From positions 606,358-670,357 of the forward strand of contig CAJINV010000007.1 of NCBI GenBank assembly GCA_905178155.1: DNA of 64,000 nt. Direction: 5' to 3'. The stretch comes from Amoebophrya sp. A120. Taxonomy: Eukaryota > Protista > Dinoflagellata. Positions 13,601 to 64,000 of this stretch are shown here, one piece after another. The notes under the pieces are model-generated. The model was not told where the DNA came from. It made no database searches and saw only the letters and a program-made list of their open reading frames with translations. How positions within the stretch are numbered: the stretch's first letter is position 1; every line of letters begins with the position of its first letter. Position numbers and translations under genes: made by a program.

Positions 13601-16600
13601 ACGCGATCGACGAGCTCAGGTTTGTGAATGCATATCGCGAGAAAAAAGTGTTACAGTTACACACTCTGATGGGAGACAAGCAAGACAGACAACTTCTGTC
13701 ATGCAGGAAATGCATGCCAGCCTCATTTCATTCGTGTTTTCCCTTATGGTCTGCGCATCACAGGTTTTCTTAGCCATGTCGAGCAACTTTGTGATGCAGA
13801 AACTCCAACAAATGTGTAATTGTAACACTTTTTTCCTGTGATAATGCAGATGGAATCATGAATACGGCAAGTGGTGAAAATGATGCTAGCAAAAATTCCT
13901 CGCCGTTGAAAATCCACTACATCGAGGTGGAGCCCGCCGTGGGGTATGAAAGTGCACAACTCCCTTTCCCCCTCATTTGTGATGCAAAGTGCCAACGCCA
14001 CCCTTTGCCTTTTGCCACGACTATGCATGACAGATTTTGAGAGCCGAAACAGCAACAGAATCGGTCGCCAATTTTTTGTCATGTAGAGCCTGCATCCTTG
14101 CCAGAGCTTGTGTTGCTGGGACTGCCATTCAAATGAGGCGGGGGGGGAGTTGTGCAGCACTCTCATATGGGGTTCGGCGAGCTCAAAACCGGTTCGCAAT
14201 CGTTTTTGCTGTTCCGGGATTTGCTGCAAAGGAAGTGGGTGGAGGACTGTCAGGCGATAGTGACTTCTACGCCGGAGAATGAAGTCTCCAGTACCAAGAA
14301 AACTGATCCAAAATCTTCCAACCTCATTTCGAGCAAGAAACACGAGAACAAAACCAACACTCCACTTCTGAAGAAACGCAACAGAAACGACGACTCCACC
14401 TCTGAAGACTCGGAAGATCTGGACCGCTTGGATTCGGACGACAGCACGGATAGCATTTCCTCTACTTCCGCAGAGAGCGACGAGGATGCCGAAGCTGTTT
14501 TGAAAAGCCGCATGAAAAAAATGAAACCAAAGAACAGGAAAAAGAAGCACAAAAACCACACTGGTGCGTCATCAAAAGGAGATCGCTCTACTAGCACAAC
14601 TGCGGACCCAAATACTGAATCAGCTGGTTCACCGCAAACTAACAAGCCGAAACTCGAAGTCCCACCCCTTCGCTCCATTTTCCACCTGTTCCACCGCATG
14701 TCGGCGCTGGCGAAAATCGCGACTTCCGAGCACAAAACGACTTTCGACAACCTCCAATTTCGCTTTCAGATAAAAGATTCAACGACAAAAGAAAACAACC
14801 AGCACGAAGTAGACAGCACACAGCAACAGCACACGGAACTCATCCCCTTCTACAACGAGTACGACATTGCGAACTCTTTAAACAACAAAAACCAGTTTGT
14901 CGAGCTGATGATCCTGACCCCGAACGGCGCGATTGACGCGCAACGGGTGGACAAGCAGGCGAAAAAGTACTTGATTTCCCTCGATTTCGCGCTGAAAAAT
15001 GGGTACAAGATGCTGCCAGAGAATCTGATGAACAACTACCTGTCCCGGGATTTGATACAAAGACAAGCGTTTCTGGTCACGCGGTTCTTCTTTCTGGCGC
15101 CTGGTACTTCTTCGGAGCAACACGAGACGAAGCGGAGGAGGGACAACGAATGGGTAGATTCGGCGCTGGACGCGTTGGAGTTATCCTGTGCAAAGGCATC
15201 GTACTCGTACTAATCGCAGTCATGCAAGACAAATTTCTTGTTTAACCTAAGTCAGCATGACAGATTCCATTTGTCATGCTGAGCGAATTTGTATTGCAGT
15301 ACTACGAGTACGATACTTTTGCAGTTCATAGGAGTTGGTGGATGACGATTTTGTCCGTTTCGCGACCGAGATGCAATTTTTGCTCGCACTCTGGGGACGG
15401 ATGCTGCTGGGCGGTGGTGGGTTTGGGAAGCATGACGAAGGGACGAATAATCCTCCGGTTATGCAGAATTTCGTCGCTATGTTGGATGACAGTAGCGACG
15501 GATTCGCTTTGCCAAGTTTAAGAACTGCTGCTACGCAAGCTGTTTCTAGCGAGGAGGCTGTAGAGGTGCCACTGCGCGAAGCAGAAACGTCGCATGCTGG
15601 TGCGGGAACATCGATACAGCAAGAAGATCAACACCACACGGAGGTAGAGGTAGTGGAGAAACCACTTCTATCGAATAAAGCGGACGACGAGGTTCTTCTT
15701 CTTCCCGTGACTCCGGATGCAGTGTCGGACGAGTCTGCAGCTTCACATGATGATCCTGTCGCGGAGCAGCAGTGGGTGCAGACCCATCTCACGTTCGACG
15801 AAATCCAAACCGAGGACGAGTTCAACAAGTACGTGCAACGAGAATTTTTCGACAAACTTGAAAACGGAAATACAAATAACACGATCAGTACAACTTCTAG
15901 CATCAAACCAGAACTGCAATTTCTCCCATCCGTCATGAAAGCATCCGACCGACTTCCGGCCTTCCTTCCCGTGGCAGACGTAGTTTTTGAACCTGAAGAA
16001 AGCCATAGCGAAGCAGACCTGCATAATCCGCCCTCTTTGCTGCAACGAGCTACAAGTTTCCTTTCTGCTACCGTATTTGGACGAACAAGCGCTCCAACCC
16101 AAATTATCCACCCGCTGGAGATCTCCCTGGCTAACGGCGCGAAATTGGACATGTTTGATGTCGCAATGCGTTCCCCACAGTACTTCTTCGACGAGACTCT
16201 GTGGGCAGTGGAAGCAAATTTGGGCCTCGATGACGCGGTCAAATTGGAACTGATACAGCCCTTGAAGATGGAACAAAATAAGACAGCAGCTGCAGAAGGC
16301 CGCGAGAAAGAACATCAGAAAGAACTCTACAAGATTGCGTGTTTGAAGCCGGTGTTCGAAATTGAGGCGGACAAAACGCAGCGGTACACGCTCGAGGTGA
16401 TCATCTTGGACTTTTTTCAGTTCGACCATGAAACCGGGCCGGGCAATGCAAATCCTTGTTTTCGTCATGGTCATGCAGAAGCAGCGACTGTGACCGCGAC
16501 ACCCACGGCAGCAGCTCCGGTTGTAGCGGTGCCGCCGCTTCTAGACGGTGGTCATTTGATGAACGACTTGTTTATTTCCGATGGTGGAAGTGATGTTTCT

Positions 16601-19600
16601 TCGGTCGAAGACGATCCGGTGAGGAGGACGCAGACTTCGTCCAACGACGTGCCTATCGCTATTGATGTCGTGGCGCAAGATGCAGTGGAGCGACATTCAC
16701 GATCTCCAACGGCGCCGACCATGGCTGGGAGATTTCTTTCTGAACAGGCTGCGATGAAACTTGGCGAGCAAGAATCTGGTGGCGCGATCCCTTCAGTGCC
16801 TCTAGCGAAGAAGAGGGCCATGCACGAATTGCATGAGCAGCATGACTTTCAAGAAGAAGACCACTCTACGGCTCCACTCGAGGCCGCACCGCTTCTGGCG
16901 AAGCGTCATGCAGCTACAAAAGAAGCCGCGGCGTCCCCGGATGCACGAAGCAAAGCGGCGAATCAAAACTACGGCAAGCAGGGTGACAGTACGACTTCAT
17001 CTCCCAGCTTGGCAGCCACGCCGGGTTCATCTCCACAGGTCGTGGGGCGGTCGGGTCGCCGGAGTACCAAGGGGAAGACAGCTACTAGTGAATCGACGGA
17101 AAAACAAGAAGCTCCGTCGCGACAGCAGGAGCAAACATCTGGAGTTCTTGAACAAGTAGAAGGATTTTTGTCAGGCCAAAAGCTGCCGACATCAACCTCG
17201 TCCCCACCTTCCATTTCCACCGGAAAGAAGAACACACCACCAAAGATATCAAGTGCAAAAATGTCTGGGTCTGGAAGATCGCAACTTGGCATGCTGTTTT
17301 TGCACGCTAAAAAAAGTATTGCATGACCAGCATTGTGCTACACGGACAGGGCATTTCTCATGCGGAAGGTGCATCAGGAAGCCCGCTAAAGGTCTGCGAT
17401 GCTAGGTCATGCATTACAGGCATGATAGGCCATGAGAAATATGCATGAAAAATCTTGCACTCTTCCAGACCCAGACATTTTTGCATTTGATAAAAGAAAA
17501 GGGTGCACTACTTCGACCTGCTGACAGACACTCCCGCCCATCTCCTGATCTTTCTCGCACAAGAATTCCCCGCGACTTTTATCACCGACGAGGTTCTCCA
17601 GAATCTGAAAGCGGCGAAGGAGAAAAACCTTTCTCTCAGTCCGATTTTGGAGAACGTGGAGCTGCAAGACCAGTTAGAACAATTCGGGCCGGACGGTTCG
17701 GAATTCGGGATTTGGACGGTAATCGAAAAGTGGGTAACCAACCGGTTTCAGAAATTGGATTCGCTCGCGAGAAAACTGGTCGTGAAGCGGGTGAGCGCGC
17801 CGGTAGCTAGTTCGGAAAAGGTTTCGGCTGTAGAACACTGGATGATCAAGGTGAATGAGGTTTTTGATAAGACGCTGAAAGTGGACCCGAAGTTGGTCGA
17901 GATGTTTCGGAGGGCAGCAGGAGGGGATCTGCAGCAGCAGCAGCAAAAACTGCCCATGAACAAGACTTCTGCAGTACAAGTAGGTGCTGCACCCACGAAA
18001 CCCGCGGCATCCACCTCTACCTCGTCTTCGCCAGTAGAACTCCAGCAGCTGCAAGCAGAGCCAGCATCAGCTGCAGTGGAGCCTCCAGTGCAAGACGCAG
18101 CTACAGCTGTTTTCCCGAGAAGTAGTGAAGTAGAGACGCCAATTGCAGGGACAAAAGAACAGCTTGAAGACCACTTGGTGCCTGCAATCAACAAGAAGAA
18201 CCCAGCGGTTCTTCAACTAGAGCCGCAACATTCCGTGTCCGCCCATCTTCCGCAAGAAAAACGACCATCAACATCGCAGGAGCTCTTAATCCTCCCGCGA
18301 ACGGAAAACTTCAAAATTGTTCCCGCAGTGGAGATTATGCAGCGGTGGCTGTATGCGATTGTTGCAGATGAAGCGGATTTATCAAATGCAAAAATGTCTG
18401 GGTCTGGGAGATTGCGAGATTTGTCATGCTAGTCTGGCATGACTCTGAACTCTGTGCTGTATGGCCGTTAAGAGCTCCTCTGCCCTGTCATGCAAAAACG
18501 CAGTTTCTCATGCGGAGTACGCAACTCAGAACCATGGAAAAAACTTGTCATGCTTGGCAGCGCATTACACTGAGTTCACTACTCCCTCTCTTGCGTCACA
18601 AGTTTGTTCCAGACCCAGACATTTTTGCAATTGATAGGATTTGGATGCGATCGACGAGGAGTTTGGCGAAGAAGGGGAAGAACAGCAACCTGTTGTCACG
18701 AAGTTTCAGCAGGATGCAGGAAGCATCAACGAAGGCGGAAATGAACCTGGGGAGGTCGGGCAGAACACAATGGCTGCACAAAGTTCTGTCATTCAGAAAA
18801 CAGCTCTACGTCTACAAGAAGAAGCTCACGACCTCGACGATGATGAGGATGGCAAAACCAGCCGTGCCAAAATGGCCCAAAACATCCAGGAGATCCTCGC
18901 GGAAGAGGATGAAAGCAATACCGAGCCACTACTGTACACTGCAAATCTGCCGGAACAAGCAACTGCGACAGTGGTTCCAGAGGATTTTCCTCTACCTGAG
19001 GTGACTACAGATCCTGAGGTTTTTGATACTGCTTCTACTGTTCCCGAAAGTGCAGCTTCTCTTTCGTCCTTGTTCTATGATGAGCTTGGCGCAATAGTAG
19101 ATGTCGGACCGGATCCTGTTGCTGCGTCGAACAACAGCATCAACCAACAGCACACAGAAATTCCCCCAGCAACAACATCTACTCCTACACCGCAAAGATT
19201 TCGAAACGGGAGGCGGGTAAAAACCCTGGACGAAATCATGCGGATGGACAACGATGGGGTGCATATCAAATGTAAAAATGTCTGGGTCTGGAAGATTGAA
19301 ACTTGTCATGCTAAATCCGAATAATGCAAAAATCTGTGTTGCATGAGTGCCAAAAGCTGTCCACTTTCGACCAAGTTGGGCGGGAGTTTCTCATGCGGGC
19401 TAGGCATGGTAGAGACCTCACAGACTCTGTCATGCTAGGTCCTGCATTCCAGACCTCATGGGTCATGGAAAATCTGCATGACAAACCTCGCAATCTTCCA
19501 GACCCAGACATTTTTGCAGTTGATACTGCAGGACTACATGCAACACCCCGACGACCCGTCTGGCTTCGACTTCCAGCGAGGGGCCGATTTAACAAAGGTC

Positions 19601-21546
19601 GGAGAGGACGCATTGGAAGTAGCGCAGGTGGGAGCAACAGGAACAAGGAAAATAAATTTCGCTGCAGTGGAGATGAACGGAACTACGATACTGGGTGGAG
19701 CAGGACACCAAGGGGCCGCGGGTTTGAAAATACCAGCAGGAGCAGCATCAACAAGAGCTACGGGCGGCATTCTTTCTTCGGCAGCACCGGCGGTACCAGC
19801 AGGGTCGTCCACCTGGATCATACCGCAAGCACCACCGGAAGAATTTCCAAACCTGCAGGCGGGTGACGATCAACTACAGTTGGACCAGGAAATCGAGGAC
19901 GAACTGCAGTACCAGCAAGACTTGTTGATGCGACTGGTTGAGGAAGACAAAGCCAGAGATGCGGAACTAGCTAGACATCAAAACGGGGAAGAAGAAGTCC
20001 TTGTGCAGCAAGCGGTACAACATGAACAGGAGGTTCATCTTCCGACGGCAGGAGTGGATCATCCCCCGCAGACTGCAGCAGAACCCGCGGCTGGTGCACC
20101 TTCAGATTCACTCCCTCTAGATGTTCTGAAACGACCTCAGCCTCCTGCAGAAGTCGAAATTTCATTCGAGGCGCCTCCAACAAATACCAGGTTCGAGCAC
20201 GAAGATTTACGGCATCCAGATCTGGACGATCTAGTGGGGCGAGATGAGGATGAAGAACATGATGGTGCAGTAACGACCCCAGATGTATCAAATGCGGGTC
20301 GAAATCCTTCTCCTTCACCCCTCTTCACGGCTGCGGAGTTGCACTGGCTCCTGCGACCGATGGCGTACGGAAAAAATGATCCGCCACCACGACCTGGTCG
20401 TTATGCAGCTGCGGGGGAATCCGAATCAGAAGCTAGTAGAAATGCAACACTCAGTACAACTTCTTCGGCTTCCGAAATAACGGAGAAGCGAAAAGAAGGA
20501 TCCGAGAGGGAGGTCGCTCTGGAAGTAACAGCAAACGGCACCACCTCAAATTATTCATCTGCGCAAAAGAAAGAACTCGAGCAACAACTGCGGAAGTTGC
20601 TGCCAGACGTACAACTTGAAGATGGCGCAACCACGACTCCAGAGCCGGAGCAGCTCGTGGACCAGAACCCAGGAGATGACATTGCGGCCAGTAGTTCACC
20701 ACCTACAGTGCCGGAAGCAGGCAGCAGAAATCACCCACTGCCTGTAGTTGTGAACAAAACTACTGCGTCAACATCATCCCGAGAACAGCAAGTAGAACCT
20801 GCAGACACCCTCCTCCCCTGGCCGTCCCACCCGAACGACCAGGAGGCCGCGAAGTGGGGGAGAGCCGGGCGGAGACGCGGAAACAAGAATCCTGGAGGGC
20901 CGGAGGTGAAGAAGAAAATTTTAGTTTTTCCAGCAGTGGACTTCTCCAGAGTGCAGAACAACAAGAATACGAAGATATCGAGTTTGTTTTTCCGGTTTGT
21001 CTCATACAAAAAGCTCCTACAATATGACAGTGCACAACTCCCCCTCCCCCTCATTTGTGATGCAAAATACCTAATTTACTCCTTGGCTCGTGGCCTTGTT
21101 TGCATGACAAGTTCTGGCAGCCCAAATAGCACAGACCTCCAGTCCATGTGAATTTGTCATGCGAAACCTGTATTCTTGCTAACGCTTGTATTGCTGTTCA
21201 TGCAATACAAATGAGGGGGAGGGGAGTTGTGCACTGTCATATACAAGTGGTTGTTTCCTGCTTTGCGGCGGTGTACCGGCGAGACGGGTTGTCGATAAAC
21301 AATCGGGTGGAGAATGAGGTTGATAGCAGCAAAAATGGGAACAATATCAGAAAGAAAAGCAACGACATCAAACCCGAAGCTCAAGACATGCAGCTCCACA
21401 TTTACACAACCGACGGTGAGCTGCAATTCGTGTACTCTTCGCAGCAGATGCTCAAGATGCGCGAGAACTATTTTCCCGAATTACTTCTAACTTTGTGGCA
21501 ACAAACTTACGACTTTCTGCGGTATGTGAAGTTGAATGAACAATGA
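10663..21546 (+). CDS. Very large (~3000 aa) hypothetical protein, 8 exons separated by 7 introners
   Basis: ORFs 10663, 13858, 14152, 15335, 17503, 18641, 19478 and 21148 join in frame when each element plus one TSD is removed (FVNA|DGIM, PAVG|FGEL, ALEL|VDDD, PPKK|RVHY, EADL|DAID, DGVQ|DYMQ, KLLQ|VVVS). An N-terminal hydrophobic segment suggests secretion. Confidence 0.85.
13633..13843. mobile_element. Introner family D
   Basis: TIR tatc..aaaaaagtgttacagttacaca / tgtgtaattgtaacacttttttcctgtgata; TSD atgca; frame restored. Confidence 0.92.
13945..14167. mobile_element. Introner family C
   Basis: TIR tatgaaagtgcacaactccc..cctcatttg / caaatgagg..gggagttgtgca..tcata; TSD tgggg. Confidence 0.92.
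15182..15330. mobile_element. Introner family B
   Basis: TIR tatcctgtgcaaaggcatcgtactcgta / tacgagtacgatacttttgcagttcata; TSD ggagt. Confidence 0.92.
17247..17492. mobile_element. Introner family A
   Basis: TIR tatcaagtgcaaaaatgtctgggtctggaag / cttccagacccagacatttttgcatttgata; TSD aaaga. Confidence 0.95.
18380..18636. mobile_element. Introner family A
   Basis: Family A TIRs; TSD ggatt; frame restored. Confidence 0.95.
19264..19525. mobile_element. Introner family A
   Basis: Family A TIRs; TSD gtgca/ctgca (1 mismatch). Confidence 0.93.
21023..21241. mobile_element. Introner family C
   Basis: Family C TIRs; TSD tacaa. Confidence 0.93.
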
Positions 21547-23327
21547 AAAAACAAAGAAATTGATGAGGAACAAGGTAAAGGTCCAAGTACTAGGTTTCAT
21601 ACAAAAAAATCTTCGCAACGTTTTACTTTTAGCAGTTGATACCTTTTTAGTTTTTATTGTACCAAACCCCAAACGAATCAATCAGCAGAATCATAGCTCG
21701 GGCGTACCACGGGGGAAAATTAACGGCTCGACAATTGTACTCGACAACATGTTGTAAAATGAACTTCTTTGCGTTTGCCAGTGAAAAACAGTTCGCAAGA
21801 AATCAAAACTAAAGCGTATCCGCAACCAACCTGTATAATTTAGACAGTTAATCAATCTTCTATCGTGTGAGTATCTTATCTCACGCGGCACGAAAACGGA
21901 CGGAGGTTCGTAGTCGTAGTCGTGTGCGACCTATGCCAGACAGCATTTCGGCGTGAAGTTTCACAAGTTTCGCTTTCAGAAGTATCGCTTTTCTACGCGG
22001 TTTGAGCAAGAACTGATACTAAACCTTTCCTCCAAGCTGACAAATGAGCTCACATTTTACAGTTTCTCACTTTATTCCCCCACAAAAACCAACTCAATTT
22101 TATACAAGATGCTCGTCAATTTTACAAACTAGAATCCGAATAAAAATACACTCTGAAAGTAAACTCTGCTCAGAAGGTTTTAGACATGCCTTGCTAGGGG
22201 TCTACTTTTACCGGGGCCGCTTGATAAAATTGAAGATCCTCTACTGCGCAGTCCCTTCATTGCTCGTTCACGGTGGAGCACAACAAGACTTGTGCCTGCA
22301 GTTTGAGCTTTTATTTTGGACTAGTCTAAAAAGAAAAACCGTTGTACTAATACTGGAAGTTTAATAGCGAGATAAATGACAAAGACGAAGGAGTGACGTA
22401 CTCACACTGTAGCAGTATCTTCATGAAAATCTTCGTCTAGACAGAATGACAAACTGTACTGACAAGCTAAGTGGTACTGACTTACCCCCTTCTTCTTCTA
22501 CCCCTTAAACAAGCTGTAAATCTGTATATCCTGTTCTTTCATCACTTGTTGAGCTACGGACTTGAAAAAAATGCCGAAGAACCCAGCTGAGAACTTGTTG
22601 TGAGCAATTGTACCGAAATAATTTTCAGCGATGAAAATTTCCACTATGCTGCATTGTAGACCGTGCTTCTAGCTACAAAAGCATCATTCCTGATTTGATC
22701 TTACGAACGAACGATGATGTTGAGACCCTTCGAGAAGAAGGGAAGACTTCGAATGAAAACTGGAGCTAGTACCATGTTGCAAAAAGTTGTCCGAAGGATT
22801 TCGTCGAAACCAGCTGTAAAGCACCGAAGTTTCTGCAGCTACTTTTTCCCTCGCAGAGAACTCGCTAGTCAGCCACCGTGACAACTTTGGGGCGGATTGT
22901 TCTATGAAAATTTAGTGGCGCATATAATTGCCGCAGGTACTGAATCTGAATTCTGAAGATCAAGATTCTCATGAGCAGCTTTGTTGCAGCTGCAGGTTCG
23001 AAAGAGCGCGATGAAACGAGCGGAGATATTGAAGGTTGTCTTCTCCTGCTGGAGCGGAGGACTCATTTGCATAGGAAATAGAGCAAGACGGGGACGAGGT
23101 AGGAGCGAAAAATCTCACGAGGTACTAATTATTAAGGCCACGACGGGCGGGCTTGTAGTTCATTCGTGGATAGAGATGACCACGAGCAGAGTGAACTACA
23201 AAAGCAGACGCAATAACTACACCTTGTTGCGGAACAAAATGACGTAACATCAGGAAAAAATGACGTAAAAGAGAGTTGCCTTCTCTTCCGACGAAAACCG
23301 CAGCAGCACCCCGCGGACGCTGCCGCA

Positions 23328-26300
23328 ATGAACCAGCGGAAGAACCCCTTCGCGGGGGGCGGGCTCGGCGGCCGCGGACAGCACGGAGGTGCCAAACACG
23401 GGAGTCAGCATGACGAAAACCAAAATGACGATGAGAATCAAAACAACCCAGGAGACGGCAGTGGCTCAAACAATTCCGGCAATTTGCTGGCCGAAACGTT
23501 CTATCAACTGCAAAAATGTCTGGGTCTGGAAGGTTGCAACGTGTCATGCTAAATCTGAATCAGGCAAAATAAAAAACTGTGTTGCATAATTGCCAAAAGT
23601 TGTGCACTTTTGACCTAACCGAGAGGCAGTTTCTCATGCAGAATAGGCATTAGAACGGTCTCGCGGAATCTGTCATGCTATGTCCTACATACCAGACGAG
23701 ACCTCATGGGTTATGCGAAATATGCATGACAAACCTGGTGGCAATCTTCCAGACCCAGACATATTTGCAGTTCATACCTTCTCCATCGAAACTCGGTTCA
23801 ATGAGTTCTTCGACTCCCGCCCCGTCATGCTGTCGATGGCCTGTTTGACCGTATTTGTCTTATGGGGTGACGACCTTCGGTTGTACGCGTTTCCGAAAGA
23901 TTACGACCCGGTCTTCTACACCTTTTTCCTCATGGCCTTTCTCATTTTCTTTTTCGAGTTTATGGGGAACACGATCTGCAAGCCGGGTTACAAGGGCGGG
24001 TTCTTCTTCTGGCTGGATTTGATCGCGACATTTAGTTTGCTGATCGACATTCCCTGGGTCCTGGCACTGATCGAGAAGTTAATCGCGAGTAGTTCCGGGC
24101 AGTCGGACGACGAAGAATCGGGTGCAGCGTCGATCTATGCATTGCAAATGTGTCTGGGTCTGGAATGGTGTGAACTTGTGATGCGCATTTCACAACACAC
24201 ACAAATCTCTGATGCGTAGGCAGCAAAAGATGCCCACTTACTGTCACCAAAATGGAGGATTTGTCATGCGGATTCGGCATTGCGGAATCTTCTCGAAACC
24301 TGTGATGCTAGGGCTTCCATGCCAGAGCTTCTGTGTCATGCAAACACAGCACGACAAAACTCTGCAGTCTTCCAGACCCAGACATCCTTGCATTTCATAC
24401 GATCAACTCCACGGTCGCGACGGTGCGAACTGCCCGGGCGGTGCGGCTCGTGCGGTTGATCCGGTTGGTGCGAGTGGTGAAGCTGTGGTCCATGGTACGG
24501 AAGGCGAACGAGTTTTGGGAGTGTCAGGATTGAAATCGTCGAATTTGAAATACTAGTTTGTCATGCATAGAATACAGCCCACAAAGTGCCTGTCTTGCAG
24601 AGTAGGCAAGTGAGGTAGATCGTAAGCTTGTTGAGGGGTAGAAACTGAGCTGCTAAAGTAGGATGACAAAAGGCGTCTTCCTTACCCAAACAGCATGAGA
24701 GAAACTGGATTTCGGCTCTACCCAAATTTGTCATGCGCCACTTGGAAAGTGGGTTACAACTTTCATCCATTTTATGCATATACTTACAAACTTTGTCGGT
24801 TTCAATCCTGACACATCCATACGAATCCCAAACGGACGAGATGCTGCAGCAGCAACAACGGAATGCGCAGAACGCGAAGCAAGCGGCTCTGAAGCGGGTG
24901 GAGGCAAGTCGGTTGGGGAAGTTGTTGTCGGAGATGACGACAAGACGGGTCGTCGTCATGGTACTGATGATGCTCTTCGTCTTACCGTTTCTCGACCCGG
25001 CGGATTTGGACAACTCCAAAGTGTTCGGTCTCTCGCTCCTGTTCTGGTTCGGCCGCAGCTGGTGCGACACGAATCCAAGTGGTGCGACATCTTCAGGTAG
25101 TTCCTCTTCCTCCTCCTCCGCGGCTTCTTCCAGTGACCACTACGGGTGTTCCGAGTTTCAAACGGAAAACTGGCTTTTTCTTGACGGGTGGCGGCTATGA
25201 CCTACTCAAACGTTACAATCTCAAACGTTGCAATAGAGTCTGGAATTTGTTGTCTCGCATAATGAGCATGACAGACTCGCAGACCATTCCACTTTCTGCA
25301 ACACAAATTTCGGCAGATTGTAGTCTGGTTTGGGACTCCGGAACTTGTCATGCGCAGTCCTATGAGACTTGGCTAGATCATGCACTTCTTGCATGACAGA
25401 TTTGCAAGTTCTATTGTAACGTTTGAGATTGTAACGGTTGAGCAGGTCATAGCGGCACCTGGTGTTTTCCTATTCGCAGCTCAGCCGGGACCGCTATGAA
25501 GTGCAAATATGTCTGGGTCTGGATGAAAAGTGGAACTTGTAATGCGTGTCTTGCATTTCTGGAAAATCTTCTGTGTTGCATGTGTAGCAAAAGAGGAGCT
25601 TCCACCTTTGTCATGCAAAAACGAGATTTGTAATGCGTGCTAGGCATCAACCGGCGTCTGAAAAACTTGTCATGCTTGGCTGCCATTGCATTTGCAAGCG
25701 CCTCCGTGAACATGCGCGACTCAGCATCACAGGTTTCCAGACCGAGACAAATTTGCATTTCATAACCGGTACGCAAGCACGACTGCGGACCACCTGAAAC
25801 TGACCGAACCGCTGCTGTGGTATGCATTGCAAATATGTCTGGGACTGGAAGGTTGCAACTTGTGATGCTGTCCTCACATTCCAAAAGGATTGGTAGTGCA
25901 GGAGCAGCAAGAGAAGTCCAGTTTGTGCTACGTGGGGAAGGCATTTCTCATGCGGAATTTTAGAAATCTGTGATGCTAGATCATGCATTACAAGCATCGC
26001 CGGTCATGCGAAGTATGCATGACAAACGTGGCAATCTTCCAGACCCAGACATATTTGCATTTGATATGTGGCTGCGGGTCCCCAATTGGGCGGACGGGGG
26101 GAAGATGAGCGACATCGCGTCGGTATCAATTGCAAAAATGTGGTCTGGGTCTGGAAGAGTCATGCTGCTTTTGCATGACACAGAAGGCCTGCCATGGAAG
26201 TTCTAGGATCACAGGTTTCGAGAAGCTTCCGCAAAAATGCCGAATCCGCATGACAAATCCCCCATTCTGGTGACAGAAAGTGGCCAGCTTTTGCTGCCTG

Positions 26301-43500: not shown

Positions 43501-43502
43501 TT

Positions 43503-48811: not shown

Positions 48812-48992
48812 GCGCGTTTTCCATAGTTTGGTTTTTTTGACGATGGTTGCAGCTTCGTCCACGTACTTCTGCGGAATCCAGGCGCACATCAGCTTGTGGA
48901 CATGTTCTACATCCGGGAGGGAACCATCATACGACTCGGGACCGTAGGCGCGTGCTTCGGCGGGGGCGATCTGTTCATTAGGAGAATGGAAA

Positions 48993-49243
48993 GATTAAGG
49001 ATTTCCATTGCAGTTGCGCCATTTTGTTTGTAGATGCCACGGACCAAGCATCTCGTTTGTAGATGCGACCTCGCCCTGGCACGCAACCTTGTGCTGGCAA
49101 TGCGTGCATGACAAATTCCGGAAATCCAAACAGTACTACATGAAGAACTTGTCATGCACCGGGTCAATCTGTACTGGTGTTTGTAATGCTGTTGATGCCA
49201 TACAAATCCAAATGAGGGGCAGGGGGAGTTGTGCACGTTCATA
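48993..49243. mobile_element. Introner family C with eroded left TIR
   Basis: Intact right family C TIR; left boundary inferred from reading frame (ggaaa/tcaaa). Confidence 0.7.
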
Positions 49244-49435
49244 TCAAATTTTCGTCGTGGATCTTCGCCGCTTCCAGCACCTCATGGTCGATTTTCAGGC
49301 TTTTTTCATTCTCATGAAGGTCGTCGTTGTGGCAGGAGCTTAGCTGCATCGTGTTGAGATGTTGTTGGTCCCCTGCAGCCTCTCCTCGCGCGGCTGCCAC
49401 TGCCAGTTGTGCTACTGCTAAACGACGGACCTGGG

Positions 49436-49506
49436 TATCAAGTGCAAATATGTCTGGGCCTCGAAGAATGCAGACTTGTGATGCTCTTTTTCAGTTACGC
49501 AAAAAA
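49436..49506. mobile_element. Truncated family A element (left end only)
   Basis: tatcaagtgcaaatatgtctgggcctcgaag, no right TIR. Confidence 0.7.
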
Positions 49507-49589
49507 CCTTCGTTCACCCCTGTCGTCCTCCGTAGCTTGTTCATCTCGTGCAAGCACCCCTATAAAAAGATATCTGACTTCAGTTCAAC

Positions 49590-49882
49590 TACATCGGTTG
49601 TAAAAACGTCCCCACCCCAGAGTCGAGATGGTAAATCTGCAATACAAATCTCCAGGAAATGGGAGTTGTGCATGACAAGTTTTCACCTGCAGCAGGGTAG
49701 TGCTGCTTAGCAAGGGAACAAGCCGCATGAGAGAGCCACTTTCTTATCCTGTTTACAGCATTACAAATTTCTTGAAAACACGACTGGAAATGCCCCTCAT
49801 GGAGCTGCGCATTACAACAAATGATTCCGTCATTGCACATTTGCATGACAGCTCTGGGGTGGGTACGTTTTTGCTGATGATA
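49590..49882. mobile_element. Introner family H, left boundary approximate
   Basis: aaaaacgtccccaccccagag / ctctggggtgggtacgttttt..gata; TSD not resolved. Confidence 0.75.
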
Positions 49883-49967
49883 CTGACGGATACCACGGGG
49901 TACTTGATGCCCGCCTACGAGGGCGACCCTCCGAAGGGCTGCACTGTGAAATACCAGACCAGTCACG

Positions 49968-50010
49968 TATCAATTGCAAAAATGTCTGGGTCTGGAAGAT
50001 TGCAACTTGT
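49968..50010. mobile_element. Truncated family A element (left TIR only)
   Basis: Near-consensus left TIR followed by unrelated sequence. Confidence 0.75.
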
Positions 50011-52479
50011 CTGGAAAGGCTGTTGCTGAATATTAAAAACGGGGGATGAAATATTAAACTGTAGTTGCGGAAATCGAAATAATAACCCTGACAGGCCAGA
50101 GCCGACCGACGCAGATAGGGTTGTTCCTTCAGGGTTACTTAATAAGGGGCTTAGGTTAGGGTTTGTATTTTAGCTCTACACTATGAAAAAATCCGGCTGC
50201 AGAACATGTTTTTGCTTTTATCATTTCAAATTCTACGTATGAGTTTCTTCCTTTTTAGTTTTGTAACGACCAGATCGAGATCCATTTTCAAATTCTACGG
50301 TGTGGTCACGACCAGATCGAGATCCAGAACGATTATTCTACCGGTTTTCCTTATTTCTGTCGTTTCGCACCCATTTGAAAGTATTAATGTTTCTTTGCCA
50401 AAAATGTAACAGTTTAGGTTTTTCTTTTTGATTTTGCACCTTCGAAATTTTCGTTTTTTCATTAAGTTCTTTTTGCCTCGTTTCAGTCGTCTCTAGGAGC
50501 AAACTATCGAAGGAGAAGCAGAAAGAAGCTACAACTCGGCTTATTTTTTGAAGCCTCCAATACAACAGTTACAGTAGCCGTACTCGCACGAGAATAATTA
50601 CCTGACCCCCCCTATCATCACGCTGTAGCCCAGTGGGACTGGAGCGCCGCTCTCTTTTTTTCCGGCTTCGCAAATTCATACATTGATTGAGCAACTACTG
50701 GAAGACGAGCGCTAATAGAAATGAATTTGCTTGCCGGGTTATATCTAAGATTGCAATGGCGCGATAGTTTCTTTCGCTTGCCCACCCCATACCCGGACTC
50801 ACTTTTATAGCCTCGGTGGAATGAAAAAAGCCTCCCGAACGAGGAAAGATGTAAAAGAAAGCACTTAGTGCACGTGGGCAGTCGTTCTTCAATTTTTACC
50901 CCCGTAGTTGTTGCAGAGTCGAGGAAGACGGGAAGGAAAGAGCGGAATAGCAACGTTTCGCTTCCCTTCCAGTCTTGCTCGAGCTATCCCGGCTCGGCTC
51001 TGCAACTCTGCAGCGATTATTCTCACAGTAGTAAGTTTTCATTCGATATCGATTCCCAGAAGAGGGAAGCCAAAAGCTATCACTTTCGCACGATGACACC
51101 CTTCGAGGTAGCAGGAGCAGCTCGATTTGCGGCTCGCGAGATTATGGGACAAAGTGAATGCTTATGCTTTCCTCGCAACAGTTTTACCCGACCCGCTGCC
51201 AAAAAAATATCCGCAAAAGATGGAAGCCTCTTCCCAGTGCGGTCCATGAAGATAGGGTAGGCATTGATTGCCACCCGCCCGTGTTCGTTCCGTGCAGAAA
51301 GTTTTTCCCTGCGTATAATGTGGTGTCCTTTATAATTTTGCGACTGTCCTAGTAGTTCTACTGGTTCTTGCTCCCCTCTCCCCTCCCAAATTTCTCTGCA
51401 AGATCGATGAGGAGAGCATGAGCAGGTGTTCAACAGCACTCCAGACAGCGGATGTTGTACTTAGCTGTTTGTTGAAGCTCAAATTAATAAAGCCCAACCG
51501 GCAGACTCAGAAGTCTCAGAAAAGCGGTACAACTACAAGATACGTCGAGCGCGTTTTTAGCTGACACTACGCAGCACTTAATGAGGCTAGGGTCCTGTTT
51601 TATGTTTTTGTTTTATTTAATTATGATGCAGCGGAAATGCTTTGAACAGCGGCACTGAGCAAGATCATCCTGAGTACTAAAAAGTAATTCCTCTGTTTTG
51701 AGATTAAGTTGTGCAGCAGTGCAGCGTGCGGCGTGAATCATATTAGAAAGATAGTTCTTAGCAGCAGCAGCGTGCGACCAAGAAGATGGACGAAGATCAC
51801 GGTCAGGTACGGCCCGAAGATCACCTGGCAAAGGATCTCGTGTAGATCACGATCTAGACAATATATCTCACGCAAGATTTTTCCCTTTGGTTCCTTGGTT
51901 TATCTTTATGTGCATGTTGACCTGCTTAAGTATTTGATTTGTAGTGTTATGCTTTGCTGTTGCTGGGCCTGGGCATATGAGTCCGGTTCGCTAGGTGTGC
52001 GACTTTATTGAGCCAGAATTCATCGAACAATAGGATTCGCAATCACAGCTGCAGTTTCGTTTTGTTACTTGTAGTTTGTCAACCATCAAAATGTCGAAGG
52101 TTCTACTTCCTTTTGTTTCTGCAGGCTATTATGGTTGTTCTCATGCTCGTGCATTATAAAGCAAAGCGAGAGCTGAAACAGCTGCAATTGTAAGCGACAC
52201 AAAAGCTTAACTTTTGATCTACCTATGAATACATTGTTCGTCTTTTTTTGCACGACTTTACCTTTAAATTTGTCTGTGTTTGCTGATATAAGCCCGCTAC
52301 TGCCGTGTAATCTATTATTGCAAAAGTACGTCGTTTAATATTTCTGCGGAAAAAATGCCGGAGGGTTCTTTCGTAAGGCTGTAAAAAGCAGAAGTGAAAG
52401 ACTCAACGACCAGAAGAATATTTTTACAGAGAACCACTCTACTGTTTCTGAAGATGACCACAACATTTACTAGATTAGT

Positions 52480-55400: not shown

Positions 55401-58400
55401 TCCCTCTCCCGACGACAGGGAAGGACCAGAGGAAACGACGGAGAAAGTGCCATGCTGCGTCGACGGCGGTATTCAGGCAAAAACAGAAAAACTACACACA
55501 TCCTGTGCACCACTAGCACTTCCAGAAGATGCTGTGAAAAAGGATGACACGAAAAAGTCCCGGACCTTCGAGGAACCCACTGCATCGCCGATGCCAAAAT
55601 CTACTCCGGCTGCTGCGTCGAATGTTAAAGCGAAGAAGAAGAACGGGAACAAGAGCGGGACGAACAAGCAGGCAGAAGAACAAAGCAAAAGTTCTCGTAC
55701 GCAGATCGCGGCTGACATTTCTTCTCCTACGCGCCACCACACGACCAGCGAAGACGTGTTAATACAGGAAGAAGCCAGCACACTAGCAGGAGAAGAAGTC
55801 ATTGCCGTGAACGATCACGGGATTCCGGAAGTTTTGCCAGGATTGCTGTTTTATCAACTGCAAAAATGTCTGGGTCTGGATGAATGCATGTTCGTCATGC
55901 TTGTCTGGCATGACTCTTAAATCTGTCATGCACATTACCCAAGAGCCGGAGCCCCATTTTTCTGTCATGCAGAGACGCAGCCTGTCATGCAGAATAGGCA
56001 ACACCTGGAAGCTCATAAACTTGTCATGCTGAGCCAGCACTTGTGGCCTCCTCGTGATACGCCACTCAGCATCACAAGTTTCCAGACCCAGACACTTTTG
56101 CATTTGATATGTTTTCCTACAACAAAAGACTCCCACTGACCACCTGGGACGACCCGGTCATTGAGAGATTTTTCAAGGAAATCGAAGCCGAGGCCGAGAA
56201 GATCTTGAATCTGAAAACTTCCAAAAGCACACAGAAGGATATAACCCGCTCAGGTGTTACAATCTCAAACGTTACAATAGAGTTTGCAACTTGTGTTGCA
56301 TGATGCGCATGACTGACTCGCAGAGGGCTCCACTCTCTGCAATACAAATTTCGCCAGATTGTAGTGGGGTTTGGGACTCCGGAGCTTGTCATGCGCAATC
56401 CTATGAGAGTGGGCTAGAACATGCACTCTTGCATCACAGATTTCCATATTCTATTGTAACGTTTGAGATTGTAGCAGCTGAGCGGGTTATAAAGGACCTT
56501 ATCCGCAAGCAGCTGGCGGATAAGAACTACGCGAAGAAAACTTTGCAGGAGCTTTTACCGAAGGCGCGGTGGGAAATTCTAGAGGGAAAGGCACGGCTGG
56601 AAGAGTTTTATTCCAACAAAAAGAGGGAAATAACGGAAAGGCTGACCATTTCTGCACAACAGGGTGATGGACAAGAACACCAGATGACGGTAGACCAACT
56701 CTACGACGCGGCTGTGGCGGAGGCGCGGGATCTCAGCAGCGAGGAAATTGCGGAAAAGATACTAAGACCGGATGTCAAGCGGGCTTTCAGCAAAATTGGG
56801 AATGTCATATCTCGTCAGCGGAACAAAATCCTGCCGCGGGAGTCCGAGGTTATCAAGTATCGCAAGAACAAACTGTTTCACTGTGAACTTGTGATGCATA
56901 GAATGGAGCACAGAACGATTTGTCTTGCTACAGCTGCAAGACATCGGATTTTTAGGCGTGTTTTCCCTGCTTTGGAAGCACGCATGGCAAATTTTCTGTG
57001 TCATGTGTAACAAATTTGTGATGCAGATCTTGCAAAGCCATCACAGTGAAACAGTTTTTTCGTGGGATATCAAGACGGGCGTTTTTAAAGAAGCCAGCAC
57101 CGGGTTGTTGATGTGGGTGGACGTGTATCAAATGCAAAAATGTCTGGGTCTCGAAGAATGCAAGTTTCTCATGCTTGTCGGGCATGACTCGAGAATCTGT
57201 GTTGCATAAAGCACGAAGAAGCCCTCTTACCTGTCATGCAAAAACGCAGTTTGCCATGCGGAATACGTAAGACATGGCAGCCAAAAAATTTGTCATGCAT
57301 AGCTGCGTATTGCAGTGCGTCTATCATTCACTTTTAGCATTACAAGTTTCCAGACCCAGACATATTTGCAATCCATAACGTGGCGGGCAGCAGCGCAGAG
57401 AAAAGACAGACGAAAGCGGGTCTGCAAAGCATGATGCGGGGGAGGATTGTCGTTGAGGTAGACGAAGCGGACGCGGTTTGGTCGAAAGAAAGGATGGAGG
57501 AACGGAAGCAAAGACGGACGGAAGTGGCGTTGGAAGATTCAAAGGTCCAAGAGCAATTGCAGCTGAAAGAAGCGCCAACTACAAAAGACCGTACAACGGC
57601 CCGCGTGGAGCAGCTACAGGCTCCAGCCGACACTACTTCTGCGCACCACGCAGTAGAAGAACCACGGGCAGATGAAGGCTCTGTTGCGGCAGCACCTAGA
57701 AGGGAAGCAGAGATGATGGTGGAGGCAGAGCCGAGTGCGATAAACCGTGGTGATGAAAAAATTGCTTCACAGGTGGACGTTGCTCCACAGGTGGACGAGC
57801 CGGGTAGAAATGTTCAACCACAACCATTACCACCTTCCGCAAGCACTCCTGTCGTCGCACAACTTGGGAAGAAGGCGCAGAGGAAGGCCAAAGCGAAGGC
57901 CCGAGCGAACAACGGCGAGAATAATAACCACACAAATAAATCCGACACAGCTCCTACAACCGCTGCAGACGGAGCTACAGCTGAAGGATCGGAGAGTATG
58001 ACGGGACCACCAACAAAAAAGAGCACAGGTGAAAAAAATCAAATCCGCGAAGTAGTACCTACAAATATGAACAAGCACGGTTTTCCGGAAACCCTTCCCG
58101 CGTTGCTCTATTCTTACGAGCGGTTTCTCCCCTTAACCAGTTGGGACGATCCGAAACTGACGCAAATTTTAGCCGACATCGAGGAACACGCCAACCGGAA
58201 TCTGGGGCGCAAGACCAGCGCTTTGGGGCGCAGTTTGGCGGCGCAACACCAACAACTTCTAACGGGGGCGCAGCAGCAACCAGGTGGAGGTCAACACCAG
58301 CTCGCCCAGCAATGCCGGGGCGGACTCCGGGGGAGCTTCGGGAGCAGCGTGGCGACGAGACAGGCGTTGTCGGAGAAACACTATGCTCAGAAGACGATTG

Positions 58401-61400
58401 ACAAATTACTCCCCGAGGCGTACGCCGAAATTGAAGAGCAGAAAAAGCGGCTTCTCGCGTTTAACAAAGAGCACAGCAAAAAGGGAAAGCGAAACGAACT
58501 CTTCACGGAGGAAGAATTTGTGCAGATGATTCTCGCGCAGGAGAATGGCGGTCCCCCGCGGGCCTACGAGAAATTTGGCAACAAACTGGTGCGCGTGAAC
58601 AACGATTCGCTTACTGGCTGCGACACGGAACTAATCCCAACCGGGGTGCTGAAGGAGAGACAAACCGGGCTTTTGATGTGGATGGATATCAAAACGGCCA
58701 ACGCAACAAGGATTCTGACCAACTCGACCGTGACCACCCTGGGCGGCACGTTGCGGGTTGAGAGGGACGAGTCGGATCCGGTGGAGCTCGCAACGAAGAT
58801 TGAGTCGGTGAAAGACGTATCCTGCGCAAAAGTATCGTACTCGTATTGCAGTCATGCATTACACATCCTGTTCTTAAGGTAAATCAGCATTACAAATTTT
58901 ATTTCTCATCATGCTGAGTAAAGTTGTATATGCATTTATACGAGTGCGATACTTTCGCAATGCATAAGACGGGCGGAGTAAGGAGCACGTGTTGGTGGAG
59001 CAAGAAGATGTTGTCGGAAAAAATCAATCTCCCGTTGTGCCAGAAATTCTTGCATCAGGAGCTGCATCCTCTTCAAATGCAAACCCGTGCTCTGGCTCTA
59101 GCTTCTCTGCGACACAAAGACAAGCGTCCCCCGAGCGAACGGGTGTTGTGGCCTGTTCCGGACAAGATGAAGTAGAAGCATCACAGCCTCTGCTGGCGCT
59201 GAAACAGGACGCCCCTTCCTCTGTGGAATCACCACCGGGTGTAACAACTGTGCCAACATCGTATGTCGCTAATCAGGAGCCAGTACAATGCGGCGGTACA
59301 ACAGCTGTGGCAGGAAAACTATCTTCTTCACCAGCAGTTGCGCATGCTGCAAGTCAGCAGGGTAGTAATACTCCCGTAAGATTACACGACGACCCCTCGT
59401 GTGGCAATACGCAAGTCATCAAACAACCCCCTCTCGAGGACGACCAGGAGCAGGCACAAGCAGAACTGCCGGCCGCGCCTTCTGCTGCAGAAGAATTGCA
59501 GTCGGTTCTAGCAAATGGAGCTGCGACAGAAGTGGGAAGGCACGACCTCGAGCACCATGAGCACCAGCATCACGGCACGCAGACAGTTTCACCCACTGAA
59601 GCCGAGGCGGAGGAGGATGCTTTGTCCGTGCAACTGGCTGCAAAGCTGTCGCTCAATGACACAACAGCTACTTGTCCTTCGCCGATTCTAGTTAATTCCC
59701 ATCATCATGAAAAAGATGAAACAACTTCTACCTCCGCACCACAAGCAGATGGCGAAAGATCGGTCCAAAGCAGGTCGTACAAGAAGCTCGGGTCTGTCGC
59801 GCGGTTATTTCACCACATTGGGATTTTCACCACGGTGCTCCCTCATGAGAAAGAACAAGAAATCCGCCGCTTCGAGAACTTCAGGCGGTCACTTGACGGT
59901 TATGACAGTGCACAGCTCCCCCCCCCCCTCATTTGTAAGTATGGCATGAACAGCAATACAAACACCAGCACACGTGGAGCCTGTACATGACAAATTTATG
60001 TGCCTGATGTAGTACTGTTTTGGCTTCCAGAATCTGTCTTGCAAACAGTGCCACAACGCACCGACTGGATTTGAGGTTTTGCATGACAAACGAGGGGGAG
60101 GGGGAGTTGTGCACTCTCATACCGGTTCTTCGAACAAACAACATCAAACTCTACTTCAGCAGTTTGATTTCTTCCGCGGACGGCAGGCCAACTACTGGAC
60201 ACTGACCGCTATCGAAACCTACTTGCGGTTTTTGGAGTACGAGCTAGAGAGGGAAGAAGATCAACATGCCGGAGCCAACTACTCGAGTCCTAACGCAACT
60301 GGTGCTGGTAGTCACGGAGCAGGCGCAGGTGTCGTGTCTCCTTCTGGTGGGAAGCAAAGCAGTTCGGGCAAGGAAGATGTGGGGAAGAAGAAGAGCCTTT
60401 TTGCTCGCCTAATCGGTAGAAGCAGCTCGTCTTTGGTGCGAACGACAAGGGGAGGCCCCTCAGGAGAGGATGCTGCAGTGTTGCGAAACACGGCGAAAAT
60501 AAACGAGGATATTCCCGCGACAAGTGCTAGGGCCGCTCCTGCGGCGATTGCAAGTAGCACGATGAAAACAGCGAGCAGGCTCTTGACCGAGAAGCACATC
60601 CGAGAAGCGCGCGAAGAGTTGATGCTGATAAAAAACCACAACGCCAAAAATTGTGCGGTTCAGGAGCATGACAAAGACCAGAAATTCCAGATTGTCGGCT
60701 GGACTAACTACCTGACCGAACATCTCCGCTTACCGTGGGGGGAGTTTGTGACCCTGTCCCAGGTGGAGGCATATCAAATGCATAAATGTCTGGGTCTGGA
60801 AACATGTGATGCTGGGTGTCGTATCATGATGAGGGCACAAGTGCTGGCTCAGCATGACAAGTCTCTGAGCTTCTAGGTGTTGCCTATTCTGCATGACAAA
60901 CTGCATTTCTGCATGACAGAAAAGCTGGGTATCCGGGTAGACCAGGGCCCCTGCTCAGACCAGGGCCCCTGGGACCAGGGCCCCCAGGACCAGGGCCCCT
61001 AGGACCAGGGCCCCTAGGACCAGGGCCCCTAGGACCAGGGCCCCTACGGATTGGGGCCCCTGCGGACTGAACGGCATCCCGGAATCTGGTACACGGCGCG
61101 GCGCGGCCGGAAGCGGAGATGTCTACCAGCGGATCTTCCAGTCGAAATAATCTGGGCCACCAAGTAAGTATGCATGTCATGGGACTCCTAGTATCTGGCC
61201 AGGAGGTAGAAGAAGGTAGGCCACAAGTAATATGGGACGCAGTCGGCTGACTACCCAGAGCATTTCTCTCACTTTCTAGATTCCTCGACGCGCGTCGGCG
61301 TCACAAGTTCTCAGTTGTGCAGACCCAGATCTATTTACAATGCAACGGGCATCGTTTTTTTTTGTAGTCAGCCACGTACTTGAGCTTCTCCGTCTGTCTT

Positions 61401-64000
61401 TTTTGGGTGGTGTCGTTGAGGAATCTTGTGCATTTTTTTCCCTTGATGATGCTTGTCTGAACGATTATTCTGTAAATCTCCGCCGCAGCTTCGATGTAGT
61501 ATGGCAGTTTCATTCTCGGTATTTTTTCATAGCGGCGCCATCGGTGCGTATGTGGGGTACGGAAATGCGCATTTTTTCGCGGCACCGACGACGGGCGGCG
61601 GGTTGGTGCGCAGTTGTACTGTCGCGCGATAGATATCAAGGGGAACTGCTTCGCATATTTTTCCGCCTGGAAATCCAGCTGGAAACATTCGGGAAGGAGA
61701 TGCAGCCGAAGAGGAAGATGCCCTTTCAATGCATTTCCCGCTGGAATTCCAGCTCGAAACATTTGGAAAAGGCATCTGCGCTGCATTTCCGCCTGGAAAT
61801 GCAGCTGAAGGCGCCTTTTCAATGCATTTCTTGCTGGAAATCCAGCTGGAATTATTTGGAAAAGACATCCGCAGCGGATTTCCACCTGGGAATGCAGCTG
61901 CAGACGCCTTGTCAGTGCATTTCTAGACGGAAATCCAGCTGGTGGAAACATTTGGAAAAGGCATCTGCAGCGCGTTCCCACCTGGAATCGCAGCTGCAGA
62001 CGTCTTCTCAGTGCGTTTCTAGCAGGAAATCCAGCTGGTGAAAACATTTGGAAAAGGCAGTTGCAGCGCGTTTCCACCTGGAAACGCAACTGCAGATGCC
62101 TTTTCAACGCATTTCTAGCTGGAAATCCAGCTAGAAATGCACTCGGTAACCAAATCAAAGCAAGCTTGCTCGTGACATCACACCAGGGAGATCTTGATCT
62201 CTTCCCCCGTCCGCACCTGCGCATCCTGGGCAAAAACATGCGGGGATGTTTTTGCCCAGGTTCTGCTGCTACACGTCATGTATCTAATTATTAGGTTCTG
62301 GCTTTTATAGGAATATCAATATGCGAAGCCTTTCCATGTCATACCACGCAGATCAACACTTATGCTTTGCCTGTGCCTGTACACGTGCCCTGCCCCTGCG
62401 CGCCAAGTAACGACAAGCAGCATGAAGAGCCCAACAACTTTCCGCCGAGTCATGAAGCCAAAAATAAAGAAGCACAGTGAGACGCCACGACCGACGGGCG
62501 CCGTTTGTATTCGAAGTGTGTGTTTCCCTGCAAAAGCATTGCTCGAGCGGACCGGGATGCAGCTCAAACTGCTAACGAGAGAGATCACAAATTGCCACCA
62601 TGACCGCCAAGCTTTCCTTCGTTTGTACGTAGAGCGACGCCCCAACTTCTCCAGATCCAGACACCAGATTCCGGGATGCCAGATTCCGAGACACCGTAGG
62701 GACCCCAGTCCGTAGGGGCCCCACTCCGTAGGGGCCCCAGTCCGTAGGGGCCCCAATCTGTAGGGGCCCTGGTCCCAGGGGCCCCTATTCCAGGGGCCCT
62801 GGTCCTAGGGGCCCTGGTCCCAGGGGCCCTGGTCTACACCTTTACCGAAAAGCTGAGCTCTCGGGTAACGCGCATGACAGATTTAAGAGGCATGCCAGAC
62901 AAGCATGACAAACATGCATTCTTTCATACCCAGACATATTTGCACTTGATAAGGCACTAAACACACGACTAGCAACTACATCTGCTTCCTCTTCTTCAAC
63001 ATCCTCTTCGCCGGGGAACAAGGGCCAGAGGAAGATTTTATCCTGTGCAAAAGTATCGTACTCGTATTGCAGTGATGTAATTACAAATCTTTTTCTTAAG
63101 GTAAATCAGCATTACAAATTTTGTTTCTCATGCTGAGGAAATTTGTAATGCATTTATAAGTACGAGTGCGATACTTTTGCAATCCATAGATTTTCGGGCG
63201 CGAACATTTCCTCTTTCTCGACACCGTGAAAGACGCAGATGAGAGAATCAAAGCCGGAAATAACCCCGCTGGAAAGCATCCTGGCAACGTCGCGGTGTTC
63301 TCTTCAATAAATACAAGAGGACAGCAAAGTGCGGCTGGTGCAGATGGCCACGTTGGCTGTACTAGAGAACAAGAAGACAATTCTCAGCACACATCATTAT
63401 CGGGTGGTCTGCTGAACCATGTGAAGCAGGGAAAGTTTGCGAGTTACGAGGAAATTACGGTAACAAATGCCTTTATGAGAGTGTCAGGATTGAAATCGTC
63501 AAAGTTGAAATGATTTGCCATGCATAAAATGGATGCCAGTCGGAAGCCCACTTATCAAGCGGCGCATGACAAATTTTCCGAGCACCGGAATCCAATTTGT
63601 CATGCTGCTTAGGCCCAGAAGACTGCTTTTGTCATGCTATCTTAGCAGCTCTATTTAAAACCCTAAACAGGCTCACAATCGGCCATACTTGCCATCCCGG
63701 CAAGACAGGCGCCGCATGCTTTGCATTTTATGCATGACAAACTACTATTTCAACTTTGGCGATTTCAATCCTGACAGATCCATAGCCTTTCTGGAGAAGA
63801 TGTTGCCCAGTGTGGAGCGTGTAATATCAAATGCAAAAATGTCTGGGTCTGGAAGGATGCAACTTGTGATGCTACCTCTGGACTCTACATAAAATCTGTA
63901 TTGCATGAACAGCAAAAGAGGTGTATTTTGTGCTACGCGGAGAGGGCATTTCTCATGCGGTATGAGCATCAGAAAGCCCTCGCAAAATCTCTGATGCTAG
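52480..64000 (+). CDS. Very large hypothetical protein with a duplicated unknown domain; at least 10 introners; continues beyond the window
   Basis: In-frame joins GLLF|SYNK, TQKD|LIRK, EVIK|TGVF, WVDV|AGSS, SVKD|GRSK, SLDG|SSNK, QVEA|LNTR, QRKI|FGRE, TNAF|LEKM. The true start may be a downstream ATG. Confidence 0.85.
55852..56109. mobile_element. Introner family A
   Basis: Family A TIRs; TSD tgttt. Confidence 0.94.
56240..56491. mobile_element. Introner family E
   Basis: Family E TIRs; TSD aagga. Confidence 0.94.
56858..57069. mobile_element. Introner family I
   Basis: TIR tatcgcaagaacaaactgtttcactgtga / tcacagtgaaacagttttttcgtgggata; TSD tcaag. Confidence 0.92.
57126..57377. mobile_element. 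Introner family A
   Basis: Family A TIRs; TSD acgtg. Confidence 0.93.
58818..58966. mobile_element. Introner family B
   Basis: Family B TIRs; TSD agacg. Confidence 0.93.
59901..60121. mobile_element. Introner family C
   Basis: Family C TIRs; TSD acggt/ccggt. Confidence 0.92.
60928..62846. mobile_element. Non-autonomous foldback/Mutator-like DNA transposon
   Basis: Perfect 9-bp TSD gaaaagctg (60919-60927, 62847-62855). TIR ggta..gtagaccagggcccct is extended by inverted arrays of 15-bp ggaccagggccccta units. No recognisable transposase. Confidence 0.85.
61657..62140. repeat. Internal satellite of semi-palindromic tttcc(a/g)(g/c)ctggaaa / gcagctgc units
   Basis: Recurring gctggaaatccagctgg..aaacatttggaaaaggcatctgc blocks. 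Confidence 0.85.
63039..63188. mobile_element. Introner family B
   Basis: Family B TIRs; TSD gattt. Confidence 0.94.
63474..63784. mobile_element. Introner family F
   Basis: Family F TIRs; TSD gcctt. Confidence 0.93.
63825..64000. mobile_element. Introner family A, cut by the window edge
   Basis: Consensus left TIR and family A interior. Confidence 0.9.

Follow-up and report, generated by a model that had tools for sequence, protein, structure and literature searches.

What decides where a new intron inserts, and why are dinoflagellate exons so short? Both questions are raised by a 64,000-nt stretch of Amoebophrya sp. A120 DNA (the window), where about 50 short repeats lie within coding sequence. 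An earlier note on this DNA proposed that the distances between neighbouring repeats follow a ~45-bp period, with insertion sites phased either by a sub-nucleosomal particle or by a protein bound to the neighbouring element.

Each repeat runs from TAT to ATA, its ends are inverted over ~28 nt, and a 5-bp direct repeat (TSD) borders it on both sides. Terminal inverted repeats (TIRs) are present both in the window and in the sister-strain loci described below. The TSD copies of 514 start-end pairs matched at 5/5 positions in 391 and at 4/5 in 82, giving 473 with at least 4/5. A library combining window and loci contains 475 full elements in multi-copy families, eight of them with at least 18 copies each; the family letters A-N are labels of this analysis. 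Family lengths here are 150, 211, 224, 262, 308 and 322 nt. The A120 TIR families tabulated in PMC12130899 measure 149, 209, 214-227, 256-261, 305 and 319-322 nt, and the A120 non-canonical introns in the text of Farhat et al. 2021 (PMC7789003) are ~240 nt long with TIRs and direct repeats of 3-5 nt. The window elements share anatomy and family lengths with the Amoebophrya A120/A25 introner elements of these two sources, and are A120-type introners, a known element class. Contigs from runs X3 and X5, presumed to be RNA, skip the element plus one TSD copy exactly, at 19260-19526 and 21018-21241, and the DNA-like run X1 retains element ends where those contigs skip elements. Since the loss is exact, exon length equals the distance between sites before insertion, that is, the gap minus 5 nt.

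The spacing of the introners, listed here without strand, varies widely along the window. Elements B 13633-13843 and C 13945-14167, with TIRs and 5/5 TSDs, are 101 nt apart. At 13808, runs X3 and X5 join a family-B segment to TTTAGGG telomere-like repeat sequence from elsewhere in the genome. A plus-strand gene carries isolated introners (D 15182-15330, A 17247-17492, A 18380-18636, A 19264-19525 and C 21023-21241) with gaps of 627-1916 nt. The introner-rich gene at 23256-32070 (+) presumably encodes transmembrane-like and cyclase-like stretches, as judged by eye; Pfam scans of this gene exon by exon gave a single sub-threshold match. It holds A 23502-23776, A 24136-24399 and E 24514-24821 (gaps 359 and 114). 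A chain follows, F 25196-25451, A 25495-25764, A 25821-26066 and A 26124-26381, with gaps of 43, 56 and 57 and exons of 38, 51 and 52 nt. D 26838-26983 lies between gaps of 456 and 451, and a canonical GT-AG intron is predicted on the plus strand by the gene model at 27071-27253, followed by a 181-nt exon. Next are A 27435-27696, G 27762-28078, a long D at 28228-29158, F 29261-29520 and H 29582-29871 (gaps 65, 149, 102 and 61); the long D contains a 13-nt tandem array at 28388-28543. After a gap of 191 come D 30063-30218, B 30400-30610, A 30668-30932, A 31105-31394, C 31458-31679 and B 31781-31965, separated by 181, 57, 172, 63 and 101 nt; the 172-nt gap after 30932 is set by the TAT at 31105.

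The rest of the window is more mixed. Three copies of a ~40-nt sequence (32636, 34028 and 35213) lie around GC-rich and tandem-repeat DNA, and the region 32630-35260 is possibly a larger mobile element. A decayed long D-like element spans 38767-39274, and an unpaired H end at 40335 is followed by an I-type element at 40439-40707 (gap 103) and A 40977-41237. Then come E 41826-42132, G 42192-42516, D 42529-42684, A 42836-43100 and A 43503-43764 (gaps 59, 12, 151 and 402), and G 45960-46298 and A 46400-46655, 101 nt apart. The stretch 48384-49995 is rearranged, with unpaired ends at 48384, 48457 and 49243, A 48525-48811, truncated A starts at 49436 and 49968 and H at about 49590-49882, and its gaps of 67, 192 and 85 are less reliable. 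A ~30-nt segment in this rearranged stretch (window 48150-50050) occurs at both 48190 and 49507. Further on are A 55852-56109, F 56240-56491, B 56858-57069, A 57126-57377, D 58818-58966 and C 59901-60121 (short gaps 130 and 56), and then a long A at 60772-62951, D 63039-63188, E 63474-63784 and an A from 63825 that runs past the window edge (gaps 87, 285 and 40). The long A is 2180 nt, with an intact TSD, ~96-nt tandem units and 15-nt inverted repeats near both ends; its two long open frames have no Pfam match. A Pfam scan of 21 window segments returned one sub-threshold match only.

Scripted end-to-start calls, with nine termini added by hand, yielded 48 window gaps, and 27 of these are shorter than 200 nt. 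The earlier hand count is reproduced in 26 of the 27 values. One 181 was of the wrong class, being the exon between the GT-AG intron at 27071-27253 and the introner at 27435 and not an introner-introner gap, and a 103 had been missed (40336-40438, after an unpaired end). At least one end is unpaired at each of the gaps of 67, 85, 103 and 192. Its four gaps of 101-102 nt between different family pairs are present where described, starting at 13844 (B-C), 29159 (D-F), 31680 (C-B) and 46299 (G-A); they are predicted to be coding and have no common sequence. A scan of periods from 30 to 60 nt puts the best one in the window at 43.5-44 nt (scan-corrected p=0.02-0.05, uniform and exponential nulls), with Rayleigh R=0.44-0.48 at 45 nt. 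Against the same nulls, nine gaps within 12 nt have a nominal p of 0.002-0.011 and four within 2 nt a nominal p of 0.025-0.048. The 12-nt cluster is unremarkable when the plateau described below serves as the null (p about 0.3). The ~44-nt period of the window is marginal, and an outside test was required because n is only 27 and the series were picked after the fact.

The outside sample came from metagenome contigs scanned with the family-A end motif, which yielded 162 loci (L001-L162; 578 kb after overlap merging). Six motif matches in viral contigs without TIR context were left out, and genome contigs gave no match; also left out were 16 rows of positions in Dataset S3 of PMC12130899, which gives starts only. 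The end caller was built from 676 strict termini and recovered most window elements; it was checked by threshold sweeps and TSD matches in place of calibration on shuffled DNA. Introner families are common to the loci and the window (up to 96% identity), but the loci contain none of the window's unique DNA. Run X1, the window's best DNA match, is ~93-96% identical to locus L003 in unique sequence, and at least two L003 introners (1183-1464 and 6156-6422) are missing in it. From this identity and these absences, the loci represent a sister strain with partly independent insertions. Such presence and absence differences between strains are a means of dating insertions. In the sister strain 404 gaps were called, and 232 of these are shorter than 200 nt.

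The ~45-bp period did not recur in these 232 gaps: a test of power at P=45 gave p=0.57, 28 gaps fell in the series 12/57/101/150/191 where 34.3 were expected, 38 fell in 42/86/130 where 40.1 were expected, and only four gaps lie at 99-104, where the peak at 101 had been placed. All-pairs distances to 500 nt in the sister strain show neither a protected trough nor a second peak. A chromatin particle of ~45 bp that phases sites, with peaks at 57, 101 and 150, is favoured by the window's 45-nt signal and its five gaps at 101-103, and by the larger sample being from a different strain. With neither comb nor 45-nt power in the sister strain, where it is largely refuted, and with micrococcal nuclease cutting of dinoflagellate DNA random according to the review PMC6313786, such a particle is very improbable. 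Fine periods of 8.2 and 12.1 nt, at first globally significant (p=0.03), did not hold up among the plateau gaps (global p=0.40) or when the data were split in two. A helical phase of 10-10.5 nt was not found in the gaps (p=0.27-0.95).

What the sister strain shows instead is a window of distances. Its 404 gaps include 9 shorter than 35 nt, 165 of 35-85 nt and 35 of 86-135 nt, which makes a plateau at 35-85 nt, equal to exons of 30-80 nt. Past the plateau the density per nucleotide drops 4.6-fold (contig bootstrap 95% CI 3.2-7.6). The plateau is flat, with 25, 23, 18, 22, 26, 26 and 23 gaps per 7 nt (chi2 p=0.92), and its upper edge is abrupt: consecutive 20-nt bins hold 65, 70 and 13 gaps, which excludes mixed exponentials. 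A box with a tail fits better than two exponentials by 15 logL units and better than Gaussian or lognormal humps by ~6; its fitted edges, 36 and 85, define a bounded distance from the neighbouring element. The distribution is therefore not the smooth, exponential-like one that the earlier note had named as its refutation, and it has no 45-nt period either. A phasing sub-nucleosomal particle is not supported, and the data favour the other form of the idea, a protein bound to the neighbouring element.

That hot genes, fragmented assembly or terminus calling created the plateau is improbable. What speaks for an artefact is that a family-A motif served to pick the loci, that their assembly is fragmented and that the plateau is weaker in the window, which is another assembly. 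Against this, the density ratio is stable in both halves of the sample (not a pre-registered fresh one), after removal of the three richest loci and at five calling thresholds (20-26). Pairs without family A show the same excess (44 vs 8), as do loci of at least 6 kb (93 vs 20) and gaps with both TSDs intact at 5/5 (63 in the plateau vs 16, of 148). When sites were shuffled inside each predicted coding block with a 30-nt hard core, 44.5 plateau exons were expected; 94 of 171 were observed, a number reached in 0 of 2000 shuffles, so hot genes do not explain the excess. Fragmentation would be expected to lose short gaps, not to add them. An independent run confirms the exon lengths: the 601 letters of an X3 contig that cover L003 6612-9636 match the summed gap minus 5 of eight consecutive gaps. 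The short exons are real, and the 30-80 nt rule is robust in the sister strain.

The plateau is also independent of family. It is present in all eight main families (Kruskal p=0.28) and equal at both element ends (89/230 vs 101/237), and family-pair-specific spacing was not found. An element with a close neighbour on one flank is no likelier to have one on the other (29 vs ~38 expected). No target-site motif was found beyond mild GC richness. Age polarity, age correlation and the ages of near and far elements were all null by a weak age proxy. Predicted exons hold 363 of 385 insertion sites. Among these 363 the commonest insertion phase over all loci is phase 1 (177). Family A favours one orientation with respect to the host gene (82 vs 44), and the remaining families show almost no bias.

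Local hopping, in which an element copies itself nearby, typically gives short distances; in composite transposition a pair and the short exon between them would move together. Both are barely credible here. Compared with random members of their family, same-family near neighbours rank at percentile 0.51 and are the best match in 0 of 16 cases, and 92 of the 110 near pairs join two different families. The sequences of near gaps show no relationship to one another (top local score 17), every element carries a TSD of its own, and neighbour ages are uncorrelated (rho -0.13). The lack of sibling neighbours, the unrelated gaps and the uncorrelated ages rule out both routes.

A different landmark, the canonical intron, gave a partial effect. 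Canonical introns were taken from a crude self-trained gene model without RNA support. Beside a predicted one, exons below 30 nt are again rare (1/36 strict, 2/98 loose), and the excess is weaker: the density ratio of 5.1 beside an introner compares with 2.2 here in the strict set (n=36) and 1.4 in the loose set (n=98; Fisher p=0.03 and 1e-5, respectively). This bears on the possibility that insertion is random and splicing selects, a hairpin-type intron being spliced well, and surviving more, when a 30-80 nt exon lies beside it (exon definition). Such selection would account for the shared exclusion below 30 nt, the 1.4-2.2-fold excess beside canonical neighbours, the absence of upstream-downstream polarity (38 vs 33) and the location of most sites in predicted exons. 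It would also fit the deficit of same-family near pairs (24 vs 38.7 expected, p=0.0004), as mis-pairing of TIRs in RNA predicts. However, that deficit fades in loci of at least 6 kb (15 vs 19.8, p=0.09), and ascertainment may therefore be its cause. Isolated elements are well tolerated, 230 of 404 gaps being longer than 85 nt; a drop completed within ~3 nt is sharper than a fitness gradient would suggest; and the effect beside canonical introns is much weaker. Splicing selection as the source of the 30-80 nt excess is on balance unlikely, though it is the main rival of the reading that follows.

The preferred reading is that the distances arise at insertion. A protein sitting on the shared ends of a resident element, either a transposase or a host factor, would capture the next insertion within its reach; alternatively, it would open a short zone of chromatin beside the element end, and both forms fit the data alike. 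Exons under ~30 nt would probably be removed by splicing selection, the lower edge then marking the smallest exon allowed; the excess, which stops sharply at its upper limit, would mark the reach of the end-bound protein. The chance that the excess stems from such reach, or from an open zone that the protein creates, is put at about even. The TAT...ATA ends, the 5-bp TSDs and the internal motif TGT(A/C/G)ATGC, all common to the families, suggest one binding protein. That motif or its reverse complement occurs 2.0-3.6 times per element in every main family vs 0.28 per kb in gaps, and on this basis is a candidate binding site for a shared transposase or splicing factor. A bolder form, in which introners mutually attract, the end protein steering any family to 30-80 bp outside in a reverse of target immunity, is proposed tentatively, below even chance. 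Several observations speak against capture. The plateau was defined post hoc and in a sister strain, the window fits it weakly, and nesting is nearly absent (one nested insertion was seen), though the reach should extend inward too. A close neighbour on one flank does not make one on the other likelier, a helical phase is missing, and some excess is also seen beside predicted canonical introns. No transposase turned up: eight elements are longer than 450 nt, and a Pfam scan of the frames of the window's long A gave no match.

Does the rule hold in the window itself? Twelve of 26 gaps lie at 35-85 (excess over uniform p=0.07), 8 at 86-135, and 1 of 27 is below 35. The distribution differs from that of the sister strain (KS p=0.03; Fisher p=0.03), and the sister-strain tail would seldom produce five gaps at 101-103, as the window has (post hoc p 0.005-0.016). 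These five, which have no common sequence or family pair, are probably chance. The 30-80 nt rule probably applies in the window's genome as well.

Integration at a distance set by a bound protein occurs in Tn7/CAST, in Ty1/Ty3 at tRNA genes and in Tf1-Sap1, and IS30 and IS911 insert beside their own ends. By analogy, the introners resemble these systems in their bounded distance from a landmark. Unlike in those systems, the landmark here would be any resident introner end, and the range of distances is 50 nt wide and symmetric and would be the reverse of target immunity. The introners of Micromonas and Aureococcus have the nucleosome array as their landmark, with distances that recur at its spacing. 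Those introners insert in nucleosome linkers (PMC9860276) and are alike in being of the TIR/TSD DNA-transposon type, with non-random sites below 200 nt; in contrast, the Amoebophrya elements have one window beside another element, without a trough or second peak. Introner elements and linker phasing in other algae are known. On spacing between elements, the text of PMC7789003 contains nothing on nucleosomes or exon length and its supplement text no distances. Term searches of 10.1101/2020.10.14.339549, PMC11282704 and PMC12005148 gave no such window, and no report of one was found in the literature searched, where an exon-length plot in unseen figures could anticipate it.

A sharp, family-independent window of 30-80 nt would be a footprint of transposase targeting, or of the splicing machinery for non-canonical introns. 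Dinoflagellates have no regular nucleosomes. For three Symbiodiniaceae, Table 1 of PMC7789003 gives median exons of 51-81 nt, and Amphidinium has a median of 74 nt (PMC12584245). These values lie within the 30-80 nt range or border on it; the core dinoflagellate genomes concerned differ in being intron-saturated, with mostly spliceosomal ends. If mutual attraction is true, its self-propagation would carve genes into exons of 30-80 nt. Such carving may then also account, without nucleosomes, for exons of ~50-75 nt in core dinoflagellates, whose genomes are intron-saturated.
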